Shown piece by piece: positions 31,812 through 52,945 of a stretch of DNA of 64,000 nucleotides; the first letter of the stretch is position 1; each line of letters opens with the position of its first letter. The notes under the pieces were generated by a model. That model searched no databases, was not told the DNA's origin, and saw only the letters and a list, made by a program, of their open reading frames with translations. The position numbers and the translations under genes were made by a program. This DNA comes from a virus. The DNA lies in IMG/VR virus record IMGVR_UViG_3300027804_000049, positions 32,001 through 96,000 of that record; one strand, written 5' to 3'.

Positions 31812-33480
31812 TTGGGGGAGTTGCTTGCTCTGGTGTTGCTGGTGTTGCTGGTGTTTGTTGTGCTGCCTGCTCTAAGATTTGTTCAATCTCTGGTGGAACT
31901 GGCGCTATGGATTGTGCCTGTTGAACTTCGCGAAGCTTATTCATAAGTTCAGGTGATACTGCACTTATCATCTGCTCGGTAAGCTCTGGTGATATTGAAC
32001 CCTTTTCTATCAAAAGACGAAGTGCTAGTTCCTTTGACTCTGGAGCATCAGAGCTTGCAAAACCGTGAGCGCGTCTCCAGGCATCAAATGAAACTGCCAT
32101 GCGATCAAACCCGGAGTCTGCGTCTGCAGCTCTATCATTACGTGTTGCAACTTGAGATGGGTCATACCAGAGACAGACGCGCTTAACGTCTTCCTCTCTA
32201 AAACCTGCAGAGATGAGCGCGGGACGAAGATACATAACTGTCAACGCGTCAACAATGATAAGCATCATTGGCTCAATGTGCGCCTTATATAGTGCCTCAT
32301 CAATTTGTAAGGCATTGGAGTATTTAACGTTGGCTAAACCTGTAACAACATCCTTTGGCACGTCTAGACCTTGAAGGATACGCTCTAACACACGGTCAGC
32401 GCGTTGCGCAAGTGATGGGTCAAACGATCTTTCAAACTTAAACTGCTTGATTCTGTCACCAAGCTCTGCAGGACCGCGAATGATAAGAGGAACAACTGCG
32501 GATGCAGAATCCTCGTCACGAATTGGAGTAGTCATTGCATCAATGAGTTGATCTTCAAACTCGTCAGCTGCCTCCTCGGCAGTCATGCCAGGACTTAACT
32601 CGTTCTCATCATCATAAGGATAATCTGGGTCTGGACTTGCTGCAACTGAAAGTCCATCTGGCAAATAAAGAGCGCCAGCGTTAAGTCGTGAGCGTGCGGT
32701 TGCTCTAAAGGTACGATTTAGAAGTAGAAGCTCTGCGCAAAGATCGAGTAGACCGCGCATGCTCGAATCTGCTTCCTCGGAGTAACGTGGGTGAGCTCTC
32801 CAAATGCGTCCAACAAAACTTGTATTTGGAAGCTTTAATGCGGCAGCTGCGTTTTTGCCGCCTGATGTAACAACGTCACGACGTGGAATTATTAGATATT
32901 GATTACGTGCATCAACTTGAAGCTCGTCTGTTGAGCGAATATCCCAGCTTTCAGGAACACCCGTTCCTTTACGTGCAGGGAATTGAACAAGATAGCACTC
33001 ACCTGAAACCGATAGGTTTAGGGCTGCATCTCGTAATAGTCCAGCCTGTCCGCCGTATGCAGAGTCTAATCGCGCTAACGCGCGCTCTGCAGCAGCAGCT
33101 AATCTCTGATCAACAACATCACTGTTGTTTACAGGGACAGGCGACTCCGCGGGATTATCAACCGCGGCTGCATAAAGACGAATACGTGAAACAACTGATG
33201 CAACAAGGTTAAATGCATACTTAACTTCGCCAATGGCGTCATAGTACTCCCAGGCTTCACTCTGCCAATCAGAGGATCCGCCTGTTCTACGTTGCTTAAA
33301 TCTTTCAACCTCGCCCTTATCATTTATGGCGATTTGTACTGCCGCTGCAGTTATAGGTCGCGGAGCAGAGTATGGTAATGATTGCGCGTATGACATATCA
33401 GAAATGACAACGGGAGTTGTTACATTACGTTGTGGTCTTTGATTACGAGGAGGAAATTCCTCGCGACGAAAAATTGCCAC
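31789..33480 (-). CDS. Portal protein
   Basis: WQSEAWEYYDAIGEV, NLSVSGECYL, RIWRAHPR...ADS and SASAVVPLII motifs of actinophage portals; position after terminase. Confidence 0.85.
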   Translation of the reverse strand: MAIFRREEFPPRNQRPQRNVTTPVVISDMSYAQSLPYSAPRPITAAAVQIAINDKGEVERFKQRRTGGSSDWQSEAWEYYDAIGEVKYAFNLVASVVSRIRLYAAAVDNPAESPVPVNNSDVVDQRLAAAAERALARLDSAYGGQAGLLRDAALNLSVSGECYLVQFPARKGTGVPESWDIRSTDELQVDARNQYLIIPRRDVVTSGGKNAAAALKLPNTSFVGRIWRAHPRYSEEADSSMRGLLDLCAELLLLNRTFRATARSRLNAGALYLPDGLSVAASPDPDYPYDDENELSPGMTAEEAADEFEDQLIDAMTTPIRDEDSASAVVPLIIRGPAELGDRIKQFKFERSFDPSLAQRADRVLERILQGLDVPKDVVTGLANVKYSNALQIDEALYKAHIEPMMLIIVDALTVMYLRPALISAGFREEDVKRVCLWYDPSQVATRNDRAADADSGFDRMAVSFDAWRRAHGFASSDAPESKELALRLLIEKGSISPELTEQMISAVSPELMNKLREVQQAQSIAPVPPEIEQILEQAAQQTPATPATPEQATPPNEVPPNA

Positions 33481-41381: not shown

Positions 41382-41457
41382 TGGAGCGGACGACGGGGGT
41401 CGAACCCGCGACCTGAACCTTGGCAAGGTTCCGCGCTACCAACTGCGCTACGTCCGC
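41382..41457 (-). tRNA. tRNA-Gly (GCC) with encoded CCA
   Basis: GCGGACGTAGCGCAGTTGGTAGCGCGGAACCTTGCCAAGGTTCAGGTCGCGGGTTCGACCCCCGTCGTCCGCTCCA; full cloverleaf, U73 discriminator. Confidence 0.96.
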
Positions 41458-48346: not shown

Positions 48347-49252
48347 TCAGGAATTGGAGACTAGATACAGCTTGTCCACGACCTCTTTGAGCGAGATATA
48401 CGCCTTCCCAAGGGTTTGGGTCAGGCTGGACACGGTCCCGCCTTGTGAGAGGGACTGAGTGGCCTTCGTTGCCACCGCCACAGCTGAGTTGCTGGTGCCA
48501 AGTGTTATGAGCTTGCGCCCCGTCAAATCCTGGGTCGTCCAGCGCCCGTGAGCATACAGGTCAAGGTCTTGCCCGCCGTTGCTTGATGGCATCACCGGAG
48601 TGACCCAACCGGCCACGCCGCGCATGCTATAACGAACGTCCGTCGCACCTACTGATATAACCTCAGGGGTACAGGCTGGGTAATCGACCTTTACCTTGTT
48701 CCCGCCGTTGCCTGCGGAGGCAACTACCGCGACGCCTGTGCCCGTCAACTTCTTAACTGTTGCCTGGAAGCTAGCCTCGATGGGGCATCCCACATCTGAG
48801 TAAGACCGTCCAACGGAAAGTGATACCGCACCGACGTTGAGTCGGGCCGCATTCGCATCTACCCAGTCCATTGCCTGTTGAACTGATCTCATCGTGTAGC
48901 TATTGGCAAAGCCTTTGGCGGACATGCCGACGATACGTATGAACACAATGCGAACCGTAGGATCAACCTGAACGGCAACCGAATACATCTGAGAACCGTG
49001 ATGCATAGCTCTATCCTTCACGTCCTGGTATCTAACGTGAGCTGCACCTGGCCCGTTCATAAACTTTTGTCCATTAGGGCATGTGCCATACTCGATGATA
49101 CACACTTCCTCAACGAGAGTTGACTTGACCCAGTCAAGCTCGGTGTTAATTCCAGAGTCGATAATCACCAACGTCTTTTGTGCGTTGGCGCTCGCTGGTG
49201 AAATTACAAGTGCGGCAAGCGATACTACAAGTAGTGCTACTATCTTTTTCAT
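48347..49252 (-). CDS. Secreted subtilisin-like (S8) serine protease
   Basis: Signal peptide ending ANA; triad IIDSG / HGSQM / GTS; SAGN oxyanion motif. Confidence 0.85.
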   Translation of the reverse strand: MKKIVALLVVSLAALVISPASANAQKTLVIIDSGINTELDWVKSTLVEEVCIIEYGTCPNGQKFMNGPGAAHVRYQDVKDRAMHHGSQMYSVAVQVDPTVRIVFIRIVGMSAKGFANSYTMRSVQQAMDWVDANAARLNVGAVSLSVGRSYSDVGCPIEASFQATVKKLTGTGVAVVASAGNGGNKVKVDYPACTPEVISVGATDVRYSMRGVAGWVTPVMPSSNGGQDLDLYAHGRWTTQDLTGRKLITLGTSNSAVAVATKATQSLSQGGTVSSLTQTLGKAYISLKEVVDKLYLVSNS

Positions 49253-49278
49253 GATGTCCTTTCGTAGTTAGGTTTAGC

Positions 49279-49320
49279 TCCGGAGTAGACGCCTTTGACG
49301 GAAGGACTGTCTACTCCGGA
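49279..49320 (-). promoter_or_regulatory. Intercistronic hairpin with a loop complementary to the VWA gene RBS
   Basis: 12-bp stem TCCGGAGTAGAC/GTCTACTCCGGA; loop 49296-49307 is the exact reverse complement of 51134-51145. Confidence 0.65.
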
Positions 49321-49325
49321 AGTTG

Positions 49326-51128
49326 TTAGGCAGCGTTCTTGCTGCCAATCTTTGTAAGTGCGTTTGCCGCAGCAGTACCAATTCTGATTGCCGCGTCTGC
49401 AGGATCCATAACGTCGGAAAGTAGAACTGCGTTTGTGCCTCGTGTAAGGTCCATTGCGTCATGCAGATATGGACTCTTACAAAATGGTAACCACAGAACT
49501 GCAACACCTTTGTCATCGCATTCCTTAAGCCAATGCTTAGCGTGTTCAGTCTCAACGGAAGTGTAGCGCGCGTCACTTACTACTACGAGCAAGCGTGCAC
49601 CATTTCCATAGAGTAAGTTTAAAGAACCATCAAGTGCCTTAAACGCCTTATCGAACTTCTCAGTTGAATCAGGCGCAGTGTACACATTGATTTGATCAAG
49701 ATGTTGTCCTGGCTTTAGAGTAGGAAATACATCCTGCCCAAAGTAAACCATTGCCGCACGAGCTTGAACTCGACGTGCTGCCTCTGACATTGCCCAGGCA
49801 GTGACTGCCATAGGGTTCATAGCACTGCCCATTGAACCTGAGATATCAACCATGACGCCAACAGTAAGTGTTGGGTCATCAGTGTGCTTGCGCACAGTGC
49901 GACGCCATGGATTGGCTGCCTGCATTGAACCTTGAGCTTTATACGCAGCATTTTGTACAATGGCACGAGTGCGTAAACGTCCAGGTGGAAGTATGGACTG
50001 AATCTCGTGTTCATCACGCTCACGATACTTTGCCTTCTCAAGCATCTGTGCAATCTTGACTGCGGCAGCTCTTTCCTTTGCCTCAGGTTTACGAATCTTC
50101 TCAAGACGAGAGTTGCTGCCATTAGTGTTGCCTGCCTCAGAAGTATCCTTGAATATCTCATCTGCGACCTTCTTGTGCTCACGATCTTGGCGGGCAGCCT
50201 TTGTGCGAACTTCAACTTCTTCTTTCCACTCTTCAGACTGCTGTTGATCCTGAGCGTCATCTGCTACAGCAATGGCAATCGTGTCAATTGCATCTTCGAT
50301 TTCCTTGATGATCTCTGAAAGTACTGCGATAATCATTTTTACATCTGCTTTTGAAGGAGCGTCAAGTTCCTCGCCGCGTTCCTTTGCAAGGTCACGTAGA
50401 ATCTGATCCCACTCACGAGCAAGATCATATAAAGGTAGAGGGTTAAGCGCATTTTCAATACCTTGAAAGCGACGCCATACACTTTGCAACTTTTCAAATG
50501 TATCCGCACCTAGAAAGTCAATGACAACTGTGTTGATGCCAACGACATCATCTGCGTCAAGTGAACCTGCGTCAACGCGGGCGCTGATAAGAGCAGAGAT
50601 AAGGGCAATAGATCTAATAGTGTCTGCCTTCTCGATATTTTCACTTATGTCGTGAAGTACAAGATCAAGCACCATAGAGCGAATGAAAATTCTATTCATT
50701 GGAAAGTTAGTGACGCCAAGGCGCTCAATGCGAGATTCCTCGAGAGACATGAAGGCATTAAACTCATGAGGAGTTAATTCCTTACTCGCCATTGACAAGT
50801 CCATCTTTGAGTAGCGAGCGTGCAGTGCCTCATGAAAGATAGCACCTGCTGCCTTTGGCCAATCAAAGAGTGAATCGCGATCTGAAAGATCACCTATCAT
50901 TGAAGGGATAACACCCTTACCAAATGCTAAGTCAACATTAACCTCGACTTCAGCTAAAGCTGGATTGTAGCATGCAGGGGCTGGACCTCCAGCGCCTGGG
51001 CCTACGTATGCCACAACGTCAGAGCGTCCTGCCCATGTGTTTACCAAGGAGCCAATCTGAGCTCCAAGGGGTAGCCACTCTGGTGGCGTTTGTTTCGCGC
51101 GGGTCGCGGATACCTTTATGTGTCCCAT
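49326..51128 (-). CDS. CobT-like VWA-domain protein with an N-terminal HExxH motif
   Basis: FHEALHA, LEESRIE, MIDAS VDISGSM, VVVSDA; adjacent to the AAA gene. Confidence 0.8.
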   Translation of the reverse strand: MGHIKVSATRAKQTPPEWLPLGAQIGSLVNTWAGRSDVVAYVGPGAGGPAPACYNPALAEVEVNVDLAFGKGVIPSMIGDLSDRDSLFDWPKAAGAIFHEALHARYSKMDLSMASKELTPHEFNAFMSLEESRIERLGVTNFPMNRIFIRSMVLDLVLHDISENIEKADTIRSIALISALISARVDAGSLDADDVVGINTVVIDFLGADTFEKLQSVWRRFQGIENALNPLPLYDLAREWDQILRDLAKERGEELDAPSKADVKMIIAVLSEIIKEIEDAIDTIAIAVADDAQDQQQSEEWKEEVEVRTKAARQDREHKKVADEIFKDTSEAGNTNGSNSRLEKIRKPEAKERAAAVKIAQMLEKAKYRERDEHEIQSILPPGRLRTRAIVQNAAYKAQGSMQAANPWRRTVRKHTDDPTLTVGVMVDISGSMGSAMNPMAVTAWAMSEAARRVQARAAMVYFGQDVFPTLKPGQHLDQINVYTAPDSTEKFDKAFKALDGSLNLLYGNGARLLVVVSDARYTSVETEHAKHWLKECDDKGVAVLWLPFCKSPYLHDAMDLTRGTNAVLLSDVMDPADAAIRIGTAAANALTKIGSKNAA

Positions 51129-51173
51129 AGTTTGTCCTTCCGTCAGTAGGTACTATTATATCAGGAAATGGAG

Positions 51174-51203
51174 GAGGTCCCTGACACCCATGACAGGGAC
51201 CTC
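51174..51203 (-). terminator. Hairpin ending the 52701-AAA operon; loop UCAUGGGUGU
   Basis: GAGGTCCCTG/CAGGGACCTC 10-bp stem between the AAA stop and the next promoter. Confidence 0.6.
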
Positions 51204-51222
51204 ACTCTTCACGCCAAGGGGA

Positions 51223-52218
51223 TTAGATCTTGGCTGGTCGGCACTCTTCACCGAACACCCTGGTGAACACATCCGCAACGACGGGGCGGTCGAGTTCAGG
51301 TGCTGCAGCGATGATGTTCGCAATAGCGAACTTAGTGCCGAAGGTTTTTGAGATATCGCGGAACGCGAGTAGCTCACGCATTTGTGGTGCCCAACCACAT
51401 TCACCAGATTGTTGGCGACGTGATAGGTTTTGAGCAACTACAACTATCTGTTGTGGCGCTCCAAGCTTTTTAGCAAGCATGAAGTCAGTTGACATCTCAA
51501 CTTGAAGTACGAAGCGAGATAGTAAAGCTTCTGAAAGTCTTACTCCAGGAGCATTTGGATTTGTAGCAGCGATGACATAGAAGCCTTCCTTGGCTTTGAT
51601 GGTACCGCGCTCTGGATTGGCAGTGATAGTTAACTCATTAGTTCCATCCATAAGTGAATAGACACCGGAGAGAACCTTTGGATCAATGAGACCAATCTCA
51701 TCAATGAACAGTGGGCGACCTTCCTCGGCAGCTTTGACAAGTGGACCATCGACCCACTCGAATCCACCTGAAGGAGTTTGGACGTATCCACCAATGAAGT
51801 CTGCAAGTTCAGCATCACCTGTACCAAGTACAGAGATTACATTTGAAAACGCTGCTTGCACAAGTGCAGTCTTACCACAACCTGGAGCACCATAAAGCAA
51901 GACGAATTGCATCTCTTGATGCGCCTTACGTAGAACTTGCACGTCATCGTGCTCACCCCACTTGCGGGCATGATACTTCTCGCCATTAGGGCGAATGTAT
52001 GTCTCGTCACCGACGAGTGCATCTGCTGACACTACAGGGACCACTTTCTTGGCTGCCGCACGAACGATAACCTTACCCTGAGGTGCAACCATTGATTTAA
52101 GTTCAGAGGACAGATCCTCATGGAGATTCTGACCTGCTGCCTTTAAGAATAAATCGCTAAGTTTAGGTGACGCGCCTGGCGCCATCGAATCTAGCTTATC
52201 TAATACTATTGTTGACAT
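51223..52218 (-). CDS. MoxR/CobS/CbbQ-type AAA+ ATPase
   Basis: GAPGCGKT, WVDGPL, LFIDEI, AATNP, LSEALLSRF. Confidence 0.9.
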   Translation of the reverse strand: MSTIVLDKLDSMAPGASPKLSDLFLKAAGQNLHEDLSSELKSMVAPQGKVIVRAAAKKVVPVVSADALVGDETYIRPNGEKYHARKWGEHDDVQVLRKAHQEMQFVLLYGAPGCGKTALVQAAFSNVISVLGTGDAELADFIGGYVQTPSGGFEWVDGPLVKAAEEGRPLFIDEIGLIDPKVLSGVYSLMDGTNELTITANPERGTIKAKEGFYVIAATNPNAPGVRLSEALLSRFVLQVEMSTDFMLAKKLGAPQQIVVVAQNLSRRQQSGECGWAPQMRELLAFRDISKTFGTKFAIANIIAAAPELDRPVVADVFTRVFGEECRPAKI

Positions 52219-52245
52219 GTGGGTGTTTTCCTTTCGTCGTTGTTG

Positions 52246-52701
52246 TTAAGCGAATAACTTATCGCCGAAGCCTAAGGCTTTGCGAACACGGGTGATGCGA
52301 CCTAGAACCTTGTAAGGGGTTCTTGAGTTGCGGATGTCTTCAAGATCTGCCAGTGATACCTCAACCACAAGTGGCTGCTTGAACAGCTTATAACTGTGAC
52401 TATCAAGACGTGAGACTATAGTCTCAAGAAATGCTAGGCGAGATTCTGTAACTGATTTAGTATCCTCAAGAGAATACTTTTTGAAGTTTCCAAATTCATC
52501 CTTTGCAAGAACTGGAAGCGCATATGTCTTCCACCCCCTACGCGGGTGAAGGCTGGAAATTTGGCGGCGATACATCGTAGCGGGTACGTTGCGACCATCG
52601 CTGGTAAGCCCATCTGGAGTTAGAAGCATTTGGTACGTTTGAACACCAAGGCGAAACTCCATGTATAAGGCACTACCTATAACCTTGTCTTTATCCAACA
52701 T
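52246..52701 (-). CDS. Hypothetical protein
   Basis: Promoter 52727 and consensus RBS; first gene of the AAA operon. Confidence 0.65.
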   Translation of the reverse strand: MLDKDKVIGSALYMEFRLGVQTYQMLLTPDGLTSDGRNVPATMYRRQISSLHPRRGWKTYALPVLAKDEFGNFKKYSLEDTKSVTESRLAFLETIVSRLDSHSYKLFKQPLVVEVSLADLEDIRNSRTPYKVLGRITRVRKALGFGDKLFA

Positions 52702-52749
52702 GGGTGTATCCTTTCGTCGTTTGAAGTACTATTATATCAGGTAAATCTT

Positions 52750-52835
52750 TAGAGATACGCAGGGGACCGGAATTGTTTCCGACCCTCTAGAGTCTTAAGT
52801 CGTTCAGGTGACCACCGGGTCGACCCTGCGTATAG
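52750..52835 (-). ncRNA. Putative ~80-nt stem-loop RNA between two promoter motifs
   Basis: Promoter 52836; ATACGCAGGG/CCCTGCGTAT closing stem with inner stems; no RBS or ORF. Confidence 0.45.
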
Positions 52836-52945
52836 TACTATTATATCAGGCTAGAGTGCGCTCGTTTACCATACTACCTGATATAATAGTATTACGGGAA
52901 ACCAACCGGCCAACCGAAGACACAGAGACGAAGGGTAGGGACCAA

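Follow-up and report, generated by a model that had tools for sequence, protein, structure and literature searches.

A stretch of 64,000 nucleotides (nt) of viral DNA (positions 32,001 to 96,000 of the 114.6-kb record IMGVR_UViG_3300027804_000049 of IMG/VR, from an uncultured virus; hereafter the window, in whose numbering all coordinates are given) was analysed for a hairpin which directly follows the gene of a putative CobT-like VWA protein. In its loop, this hairpin displays a perfect 12-nt complement of the same gene's ribosome-binding site (RBS), and the complementarity was found again, in changing sequence, in dozens of lake phages related to this virus. As judged from the nucleotide sequences, the tail loop of the mRNA probably engages in long-range pairing with its own leader and Shine–Dalgarno (SD) sequence, blocking initiation of translation. 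An in vivo contact between the two sites, its repressive effect on translation and its action in cis are all inferred. All relevant genes are located on the minus strand.

Anti-RBS loop behind the VWA gene

The element and its target comprise the following features:
49326–51128, minus strand: putative CobT-like VWA gene (P0001, 600 amino acids), ATG at 51128, stop codon TAA at 49326–49328
49278–49321, minus strand: post-VWA hairpin with a 12-bp stem, one additional U-G pair and an 18-nt loop
49296–49307, minus strand: anti-RBS 12-mer GUCCUUCCGUCA in the loop, perfect complement of the VWA RBS
51134–51145, minus strand: target UGACGGAAGGAC, ending 5 nt before the VWA ATG

The stem begins 5 nt past the VWA stop codon, with 49309–49320 pairing with 49279–49290 and U49321 with G49278, and encloses the loop at 49291–49308. 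The target consists of the SD sequence GGAAGGA and a gene-specific 5′ part, UGAC. Hairpin and antisense copy had been noticed in a preliminary description of this DNA, and both the coordinates and the 12/12 complement were reproduced. Screened at a maximum of one mismatch, the 12-mer was present at these two sites only in the whole record. When the leaders of the 70 open reading frames (ORFs) of at least 100 amino acids in the window were each compared with their own 3′ flank, a complement of 12 nt was obtained for the VWA gene and of 4–8 nt for every other ORF. A chance match is excluded by the uniqueness of the 12-mer, by the outlier position of the VWA gene among the 70 ORFs and by the recurrence in relatives described below.

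Local folding of the hairpin yielded −34.7 kcal/mol (z = −5.1 versus shuffles), with an inner CCUU/AAGG helix shutting part of the loop and CCGUCA staying apical. Exposure of all 12 loop nucleotides was calculated to cost +5.3 kcal/mol, versus a gain of −23.6 kcal/mol from the duplex. Nested minimum-free-energy (MFE) folding of full-length transcripts, which cannot depict loop–leader pairing with the stem intact, predicted a leader–tail closure for the window and for 4/10 relatives.

Specificity was assessed against the RBSs of other genes. A common RBS motif, GACGAAAGGAC, marks 11 other starts on the VWA strand of the window, and the VWA loop is the sole antisense copy of this motif there. 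From this motif the VWA RBS deviates by a G for an A and by a preceding U; the loop fits both positions, so that the deviation from the phage consensus and its mirroring by the loop, as claimed beforehand, held. The predicted duplex of the loop with its own RBS amounted to −25.2 kcal/mol versus −11.7 to −16.5 kcal/mol for the 11 motif sites, a preference of 9–13 kcal/mol.

Downstream of the VWA gene, a further RBS is located close to the hairpin:
48347–49252, minus strand: coding sequence of a secreted subtilase (Peptidase_S8 match, E = 6e-13)
49256–49266, minus strand: RBS of the subtilase gene, 9/10 fit to the loop with one A-C mismatch

From the latter fit, a pseudoknot and a toggle between VWA and subtilase translation had been proposed. 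The 9/10 fit is real; the predicted pairing is weak (−13.4 versus −25.2 kcal/mol for the VWA RBS) and is not kept in relatives, as exemplified by L001 and L002 (92% identity), in which the loop core is retained and the downstream gene and its RBS differ. The toggle was rejected on both grounds.

The hairpin is followed by GAGCUAAACC without a T-run and was not listed by a terminator scan, and a canonical intrinsic terminator was rejected for want of the T-run. In distant lineages a separate canonical terminator is positioned behind the anti-RBS hairpin, which is thus not just a terminator. A scan of 48.0–52.5 kb against Rfam 15 returned a sole match at chance level (E = 0.83; 15.8 bits versus a gathering score of 300).

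Recurrence and covariation in related viruses

Through a protein-guided search, 78 viral contigs encoding a VWA homologue (43–94% identity) were collected; with the window added, they comprise 57 different leader/3′-region combinations (loci, numbered with the prefix L). A perfect complement of 9–15 nt between the VWA start region and a hairpin loop just past the VWA stop was found in 32 of the 57 loci, versus about 1 expected for complements of at least 9 nt. When the entire 3′ region was searched against the entire locus of ~7.8 kb, the best complement fell within a 53-nt interval at the VWA start in 30/57 loci (~0.4 expected), and this interval was strictly best in 16/57. A match of 7 nt or more was present in 49 loci, and in all of these the antisense part was placed, mostly unpaired, inside a stem of 6–22 bp, which usually started 0–12 nt past the VWA stop. 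The sequences that are paired differ between lineages:
Window's clade, leader side: TGACGGAAGG(AC/AT)
L023, leader side: TAAAGGACAA
L025, leader side: GACGAAAGGAC
L056, leader side: ACAAGAAAGGT
L059, leader side: CAACGAAAGGACGAA (15 nt)
L063, leader side: CTTTTAGAAAGGG (13 nt)
L047, leader side: GAGAGGAA
L024, leader side: two parts, GTTTGGACACG + TGGAAGGA, in the order that an antiparallel duplex requires
Published genome of phage DSL-LC01: AGGACAAGTAAAC, 13-nt pair

For a permutation test, one representative per protein cluster at 80, 70 or 60% identity was used, and none of 20,000 partner shuffles reached the summed match of the true leader/loop pairs. Duplex energies agreed with this, at −20.3 kcal/mol for a leader and its own loop, −16.5 kcal/mol for the loops of other loci and −13.3 kcal/mol for shuffled sequences. 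The preliminary description had proposed to check whether loop and RBS covary among related phages. They do, which supports its central notion of a 3′ loop directed at the RBS of its own gene. Among the 16 loci in which the VWA site was strictly best, it led the next-best site by 1–4 nt in 15, and these 15 carry at least 7 different paired sequences.

The stem was examined in an alignment of 15 relatives from the window's clade. Compensatory changes were present in 8 of 11 stem pairs, with sense-strand G-U pairs; in the loop, 9 columns were invariant. In relatives at 92% identity, the loop core was intact within a shorter, different stem and next to another downstream gene. A covarying stem with sense-strand G-U pairs identifies the hairpin as an RNA feature, and this bears on a DNA-level inverted repeat, whose two copies would be bound by a regulator protein or used by a recombinase, e.g. 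one acting on an invertible VWA segment. The two 12-bp copies are indeed perfect DNA complements, and the mismatches flanking them have no G-U preference. Such a repeat is nonetheless very unlikely, as the 3′ copy is invariably situated in this hairpin's loop, the 5′ copy always coincides with the transcribed leader and SD sequence, and the copies are always inverted and never direct. An invertible segment was rejected: the gene of an AAA ATPase is upstream of and co-oriented with the VWA gene in 75/75 related loci holding both, and no inverted arrangement was seen.

Hairpins just after stop codons are common, and short SD/anti-SD matches arise easily, 7-mers being expected in about a quarter of comparisons. 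That the hairpin is an ordinary terminator or stabiliser, with a loop similar to an anti-SD sequence by chance or by pyrimidine bias, is nevertheless extremely improbable in view of the unique 12/12 match and its outlier position among the window genes, the excess of complements of at least 9 nt over the loci, the covariation and the missing T-run. Moreover, anti-SD-like sequences are normally depleted from mRNAs, as reported for B. subtilis genes (Gill et al. 2025 preprint, PMC12697547).

Two variants of the arrangement were observed besides. The VWA leaders of L023, L027 and L082 (DSL-LC01) contain two or three tandem SD-like repeats (AGGACAA), and the 3′ loop can pair with the 5′-most repeat or with the true SD sequence; the 5′-most repeat may be a decoy or standby site. 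In L055, L065 and L066, which form a distant clade, the post-VWA loop UUUCCGUCC suits other RBSs better than the VWA RBS, namely that of the AAA gene and that of a gene further upstream (9–11 nt), and the addressed gene may differ between lineages.

Transcript, second element and proposed mode of action

Transcript boundaries were predicted from promoter motifs, and a second hairpin of similar design was located behind the AAA gene:
51155–51165, minus strand: predicted promoter CCTGATATAAT of the VWA transcript, with an extended −10 box (TGnTATAAT)
51223–52218, minus strand: gene of an AAA_5 (CobS/MoxR-like) ATPase, partner of the VWA gene
51174–51203, minus strand: post-AAA hairpin of 10 bp with the loop UCAUGGGUGU (51184–51193), VWA-like in design

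The motif CCTGATATAAT occurs in 17 copies at a maximum of one mismatch (1.0 expected), 14 of which are co-oriented on the minus strand between 39565 and 52850, each at the head of a short gene cassette, and the motif is kept before the VWA gene in many relatives. Many of the 14 copies are followed by a shared RBS motif, ACGACGAAAGGA. Transcription of the VWA gene would start ~7 nt downstream of the promoter motif, giving a predicted leader of ~20 nt. Between the VWA promoter and the hairpin no promoter motif was found, and VWA leader and hairpin are expected to reside on one transcript.

The post-AAA loop UCAUGGGUGU has two antisense counterparts, ACACCCA within the leader of the AAA gene (52220–52226) and ACACCCAUG at the start of the first gene of the operon (52699–52707). 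Loop and leader of the AAA gene covary in relatives (e.g. ACCCACACCC, CACCCAATG, AAATCCACA, CAACCTAC, GAAAGGAAG), with 0/5000 partner shuffles reaching the true pairing. Two different addresses on two adjacent genes argue for self-targeting. Nothing similar was detected in the remaining 12 promoter units of the window, and a third promoter unit held merely the 10-nt 5′/3′ closing stem of a small RNA. A phage-wide rule, by which each promoter unit would end in a loop against its own leader, was rejected in favour of a restriction to the VWA gene and the AAA operon.

These results also bear on a global trans regulator, i.e. a stable 3′-derived small RNA whose loop would titrate early-gene RBSs sharing (A)CGACG[A/G]AAGGA and shut off early translation, the VWA gene being merely its best target. 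The antisense relation of the loop to a motif common to 11 further starts on the same strand speaks for such a regulator, as do loci L025, L013, L075 and L040, which hold several genes matching the loop like the VWA gene does. It is unlikely all the same: the other sites in the window have a central A-C mismatch and are weaker by the 9–13 kcal/mol given above, the VWA site is strictly best in 16/57 loci with a lead in 15 of them, the AAA gene is equipped with a different loop/leader pair of its own, and the 12 other promoter units are devoid of anything similar.

According to the self-targeting model, the hairpin behind the VWA stop would be an RNA element presenting a complement to the leader and SD region of the mRNA that carries it. 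Once the transcript of ~1.9 kb is complete, or a stable 3′ fragment accumulates, the loop would pair with the short leader, probably nucleating between the apical CCGUCA and the gene-specific UGACGG and then zipping across the SD sequence. The pairing would conceal the RBS and block 30S binding, and would probably alter mRNA decay or expose the message to it. Since the RBS is transcribed ~1.8 kb ahead of the loop, ribosomes could load during transcription, and the message would be translated mainly while being made, which would cap the amount of VWA protein per transcript. A counterpart of different sequence would be carried by the AAA ATPase mRNA. Translation only from nascent mRNA, as suggested in the preliminary description, is a plausible consequence of the pairing. 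It is proposed more tentatively, and with some doubt, that AAA and VWA mRNAs are both self-addressed, the finished transcripts closing themselves and translation being confined to the nascent phase. If true, this would constitute a per-transcript limiter or timer which sets the dose of two partner proteins. As the stem begins inside their footprint, ribosomes that are terminating might then open the structure again.

The short predicted leader, in which the target begins a few nt from the presumptive 5′ end, would also suit a stabiliser, in which pairing between 3′ loop and extreme 5′ end shields the mRNA from nucleases that depend on the 5′ end (RNase J or E), with a positive or neutral effect on output; the 5′/3′-UTR (untranslated region) interaction of B. 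subtilis hbs is a precedent (PMC5737220). This explanation is quite improbable, given that the duplex spans the SD sequence in almost every lineage and should block initiation, and that anti-SD-like sequences pairing with the RBS reduced both translation and stability in B. subtilis (PMC12697547).

Several points weigh against repression by the element's own mRNA tail. No match of at least 7 nt was found in 8/57 loci, some of which are without a hairpin altogether. In L025, L013, L075 and L040 the RBSs of several genes fit the loop as well as that of the VWA gene, because these phages share one extended RBS motif; with this motif on many genes, part of the covariation is between the loop and a phage-wide motif, and self-specificity of the loop is a tendency, not absolute. 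Non-Watson–Crick positions flanking the duplex comprise 6/63 G-U pairs, which is no excess, so that the duplex itself is without an RNA-specific signature. A 12-bp helix within an 18-nt loop is topologically strained, and closure by nested MFE folding failed in 6/10 relatives tested. Since no promoter was found between the hairpin and the subtilase gene in the window, the element may be intercistronic rather than in a true 3′ UTR there. Promoter, transcription start and 3′ end of the VWA transcript are predictions, and the phage host is uncultured.

Relation to known systems, gene products and further features

The known kind of control to which the element would belong is long-range anti-SD pairing within an mRNA; unusual are its display in a loop, its gene specificity, its presence on both members of a functional gene pair and its family-wide covariation. 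In icaR of S. aureus, an anti-SD motif in the 3′ UTR pairs with the SD sequence of its own mRNA and blocks the initiation complex, and a substrate for RNase III results from the pairing (Ruiz de los Mozos et al. 2013, PMC3868564). Likewise, an anti-SD sequence downstream of the stop codon here complements the SD region of the same predicted mRNA, in 12/12 positions and with both sites on the minus strand. The icaR motif is the 7-nt UCCCCUG within a long (>100 nt) 3′ UTR of a bacterial regulator gene, whereas the phage element, as predicted from sequence, is 10–15 nt long, lies in a hairpin loop few nt past the stop, reaches with a gene-specific part beyond the SD sequence, is present on two adjacent genes and covaries over a wide family. 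Self-addressed mRNAs, if true, would represent a principle by which phage mRNAs are regulated and which differs from icaR, the single case from bacteria, in a gene-specific address code evolving by covariation.

In B. subtilis, base pairing with the RBS was reported for anti-SD-like 8-mers lying hundreds of nt downstream, which inhibited initiation and favoured decay (PMC12697547). In the phage, a pyrimidine-rich anti-SD sequence far downstream would likewise pair with the RBS, and the B. subtilis result shows such an interaction to be physically feasible in vivo. The B. subtilis sequences were synthetic substitutions at distances of up to several hundred nt, whereas the phage copy is natural, 1.8 kb away and conserved, which implies selection for the interaction.

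In hok (fbi/tac) and in H. pylori aapA1, the full-length toxin mRNA is kept translationally inert because its 5′ end pairs with its 3′ end. These mRNAs are short and encode small toxic peptides; trimming at the 3′ end activates them, and an antisense RNA controls them. The preliminary description had named both as analogues, and the likeness extends to the concept, i.e. to 5′/3′ end pairing and a timing tied to the state of the transcript. The regulated gene here encodes a 600-amino-acid VWA/CobT-like protein, so that a small hydrophobic toxin ORF is absent, and the loop would pair directly with the SD sequence. An antisense RNA is not evident, a consensus promoter scan of the opposite strand near the leader giving only 9/12 matches, a frequency expected by chance. 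The 5′–3′ UTR pairing of icaR appears to be the closer analogue.

Control through RNA structure is familiar from phages, as in lambda sib/int, T7 gene 1.2 with RNase III and the MS2 maturation gene, which is translated from nascent RNA only. As in such retroregulation and long-range RBS occlusion, a distant or downstream sequence would control a gene via RNA structure, and translation would be limited to nascent or processed RNA. The lambda sib, T7 1.2 and MS2 cases differ in that they involve RNase III sites or local 5′ structures, and to our knowledge none of them has been described as a loop-displayed, gene-specific anti-RBS sequence across a phage family. The C-rich loops of RsaE/RoxS and the CcsR 'cuckoo' RNAs also present pyrimidine-rich anti-SD sequences to RBSs in hairpin loops; these RNAs are transcripts of their own, which have short C-rich seeds and address many targets, whereas the phage loop is part of the mRNA of its target, which it matches best.

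A literature search retrieved no description of this element. Natural long-range pairings of a bacterial mRNA tail with its own RBS are very few, and only three reported cases were cited in the 2025 B. subtilis study (PMC12697547). In the present case, support for the pairing comes from dozens of phage genomes that have diverged from one another and from a pair of neighbouring genes that differ in the paired sequence. We know of no other such pairing that is backed by family-wide covariation. The element could serve as a model of an mRNA that meters its own translation, and its design is compact enough for use as a synthetic output limiter. For phage metagenomes, a search rule follows from its layout: the first hairpin after a stop codon, with a loop complementary to the leader of the same gene.

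The product of the VWA gene gave no significant match in sequence searches of Pfam, PHROGs, NCBIfam or PDB. A MIDAS-type DISGS motif is visible, Atlas look-alikes of the protein carry VWA, CobT_C or VWA_CoxE domains, and the homologue in DSL-LC01 is annotated as a cobalamin biosynthesis protein; on these three observations the putative assignment as a VWA protein rests. DSL-LC01, an Actinomycetia phage originating from a lake metagenome, is the closest published relative.

Further structured elements were noted on the minus strand of the window and in related loci. A small hairpin, GCCAAGAUCUAAUCCCCUUGGC, extends across the AAA stop codon (51213–51234), and its arrangement, GCCAAGATCTAA...CTTGGC, was seen again in many relatives. 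In L011, L042 and L073, the AAA-terminal hairpin just before the VWA promoter is replaced by a candidate cloverleaf-folding sequence. A unit of 109 nt without an ORF lies between two promoter motifs (52741–52850); the 10 nt at its beginning complement the 10 nt at its end (AUACGCAGGG / CCCUGCGUAU), and it is probably a small structured RNA. A tRNA-Gly(GCC) is located at 41382–41457, at the end of one early unit.

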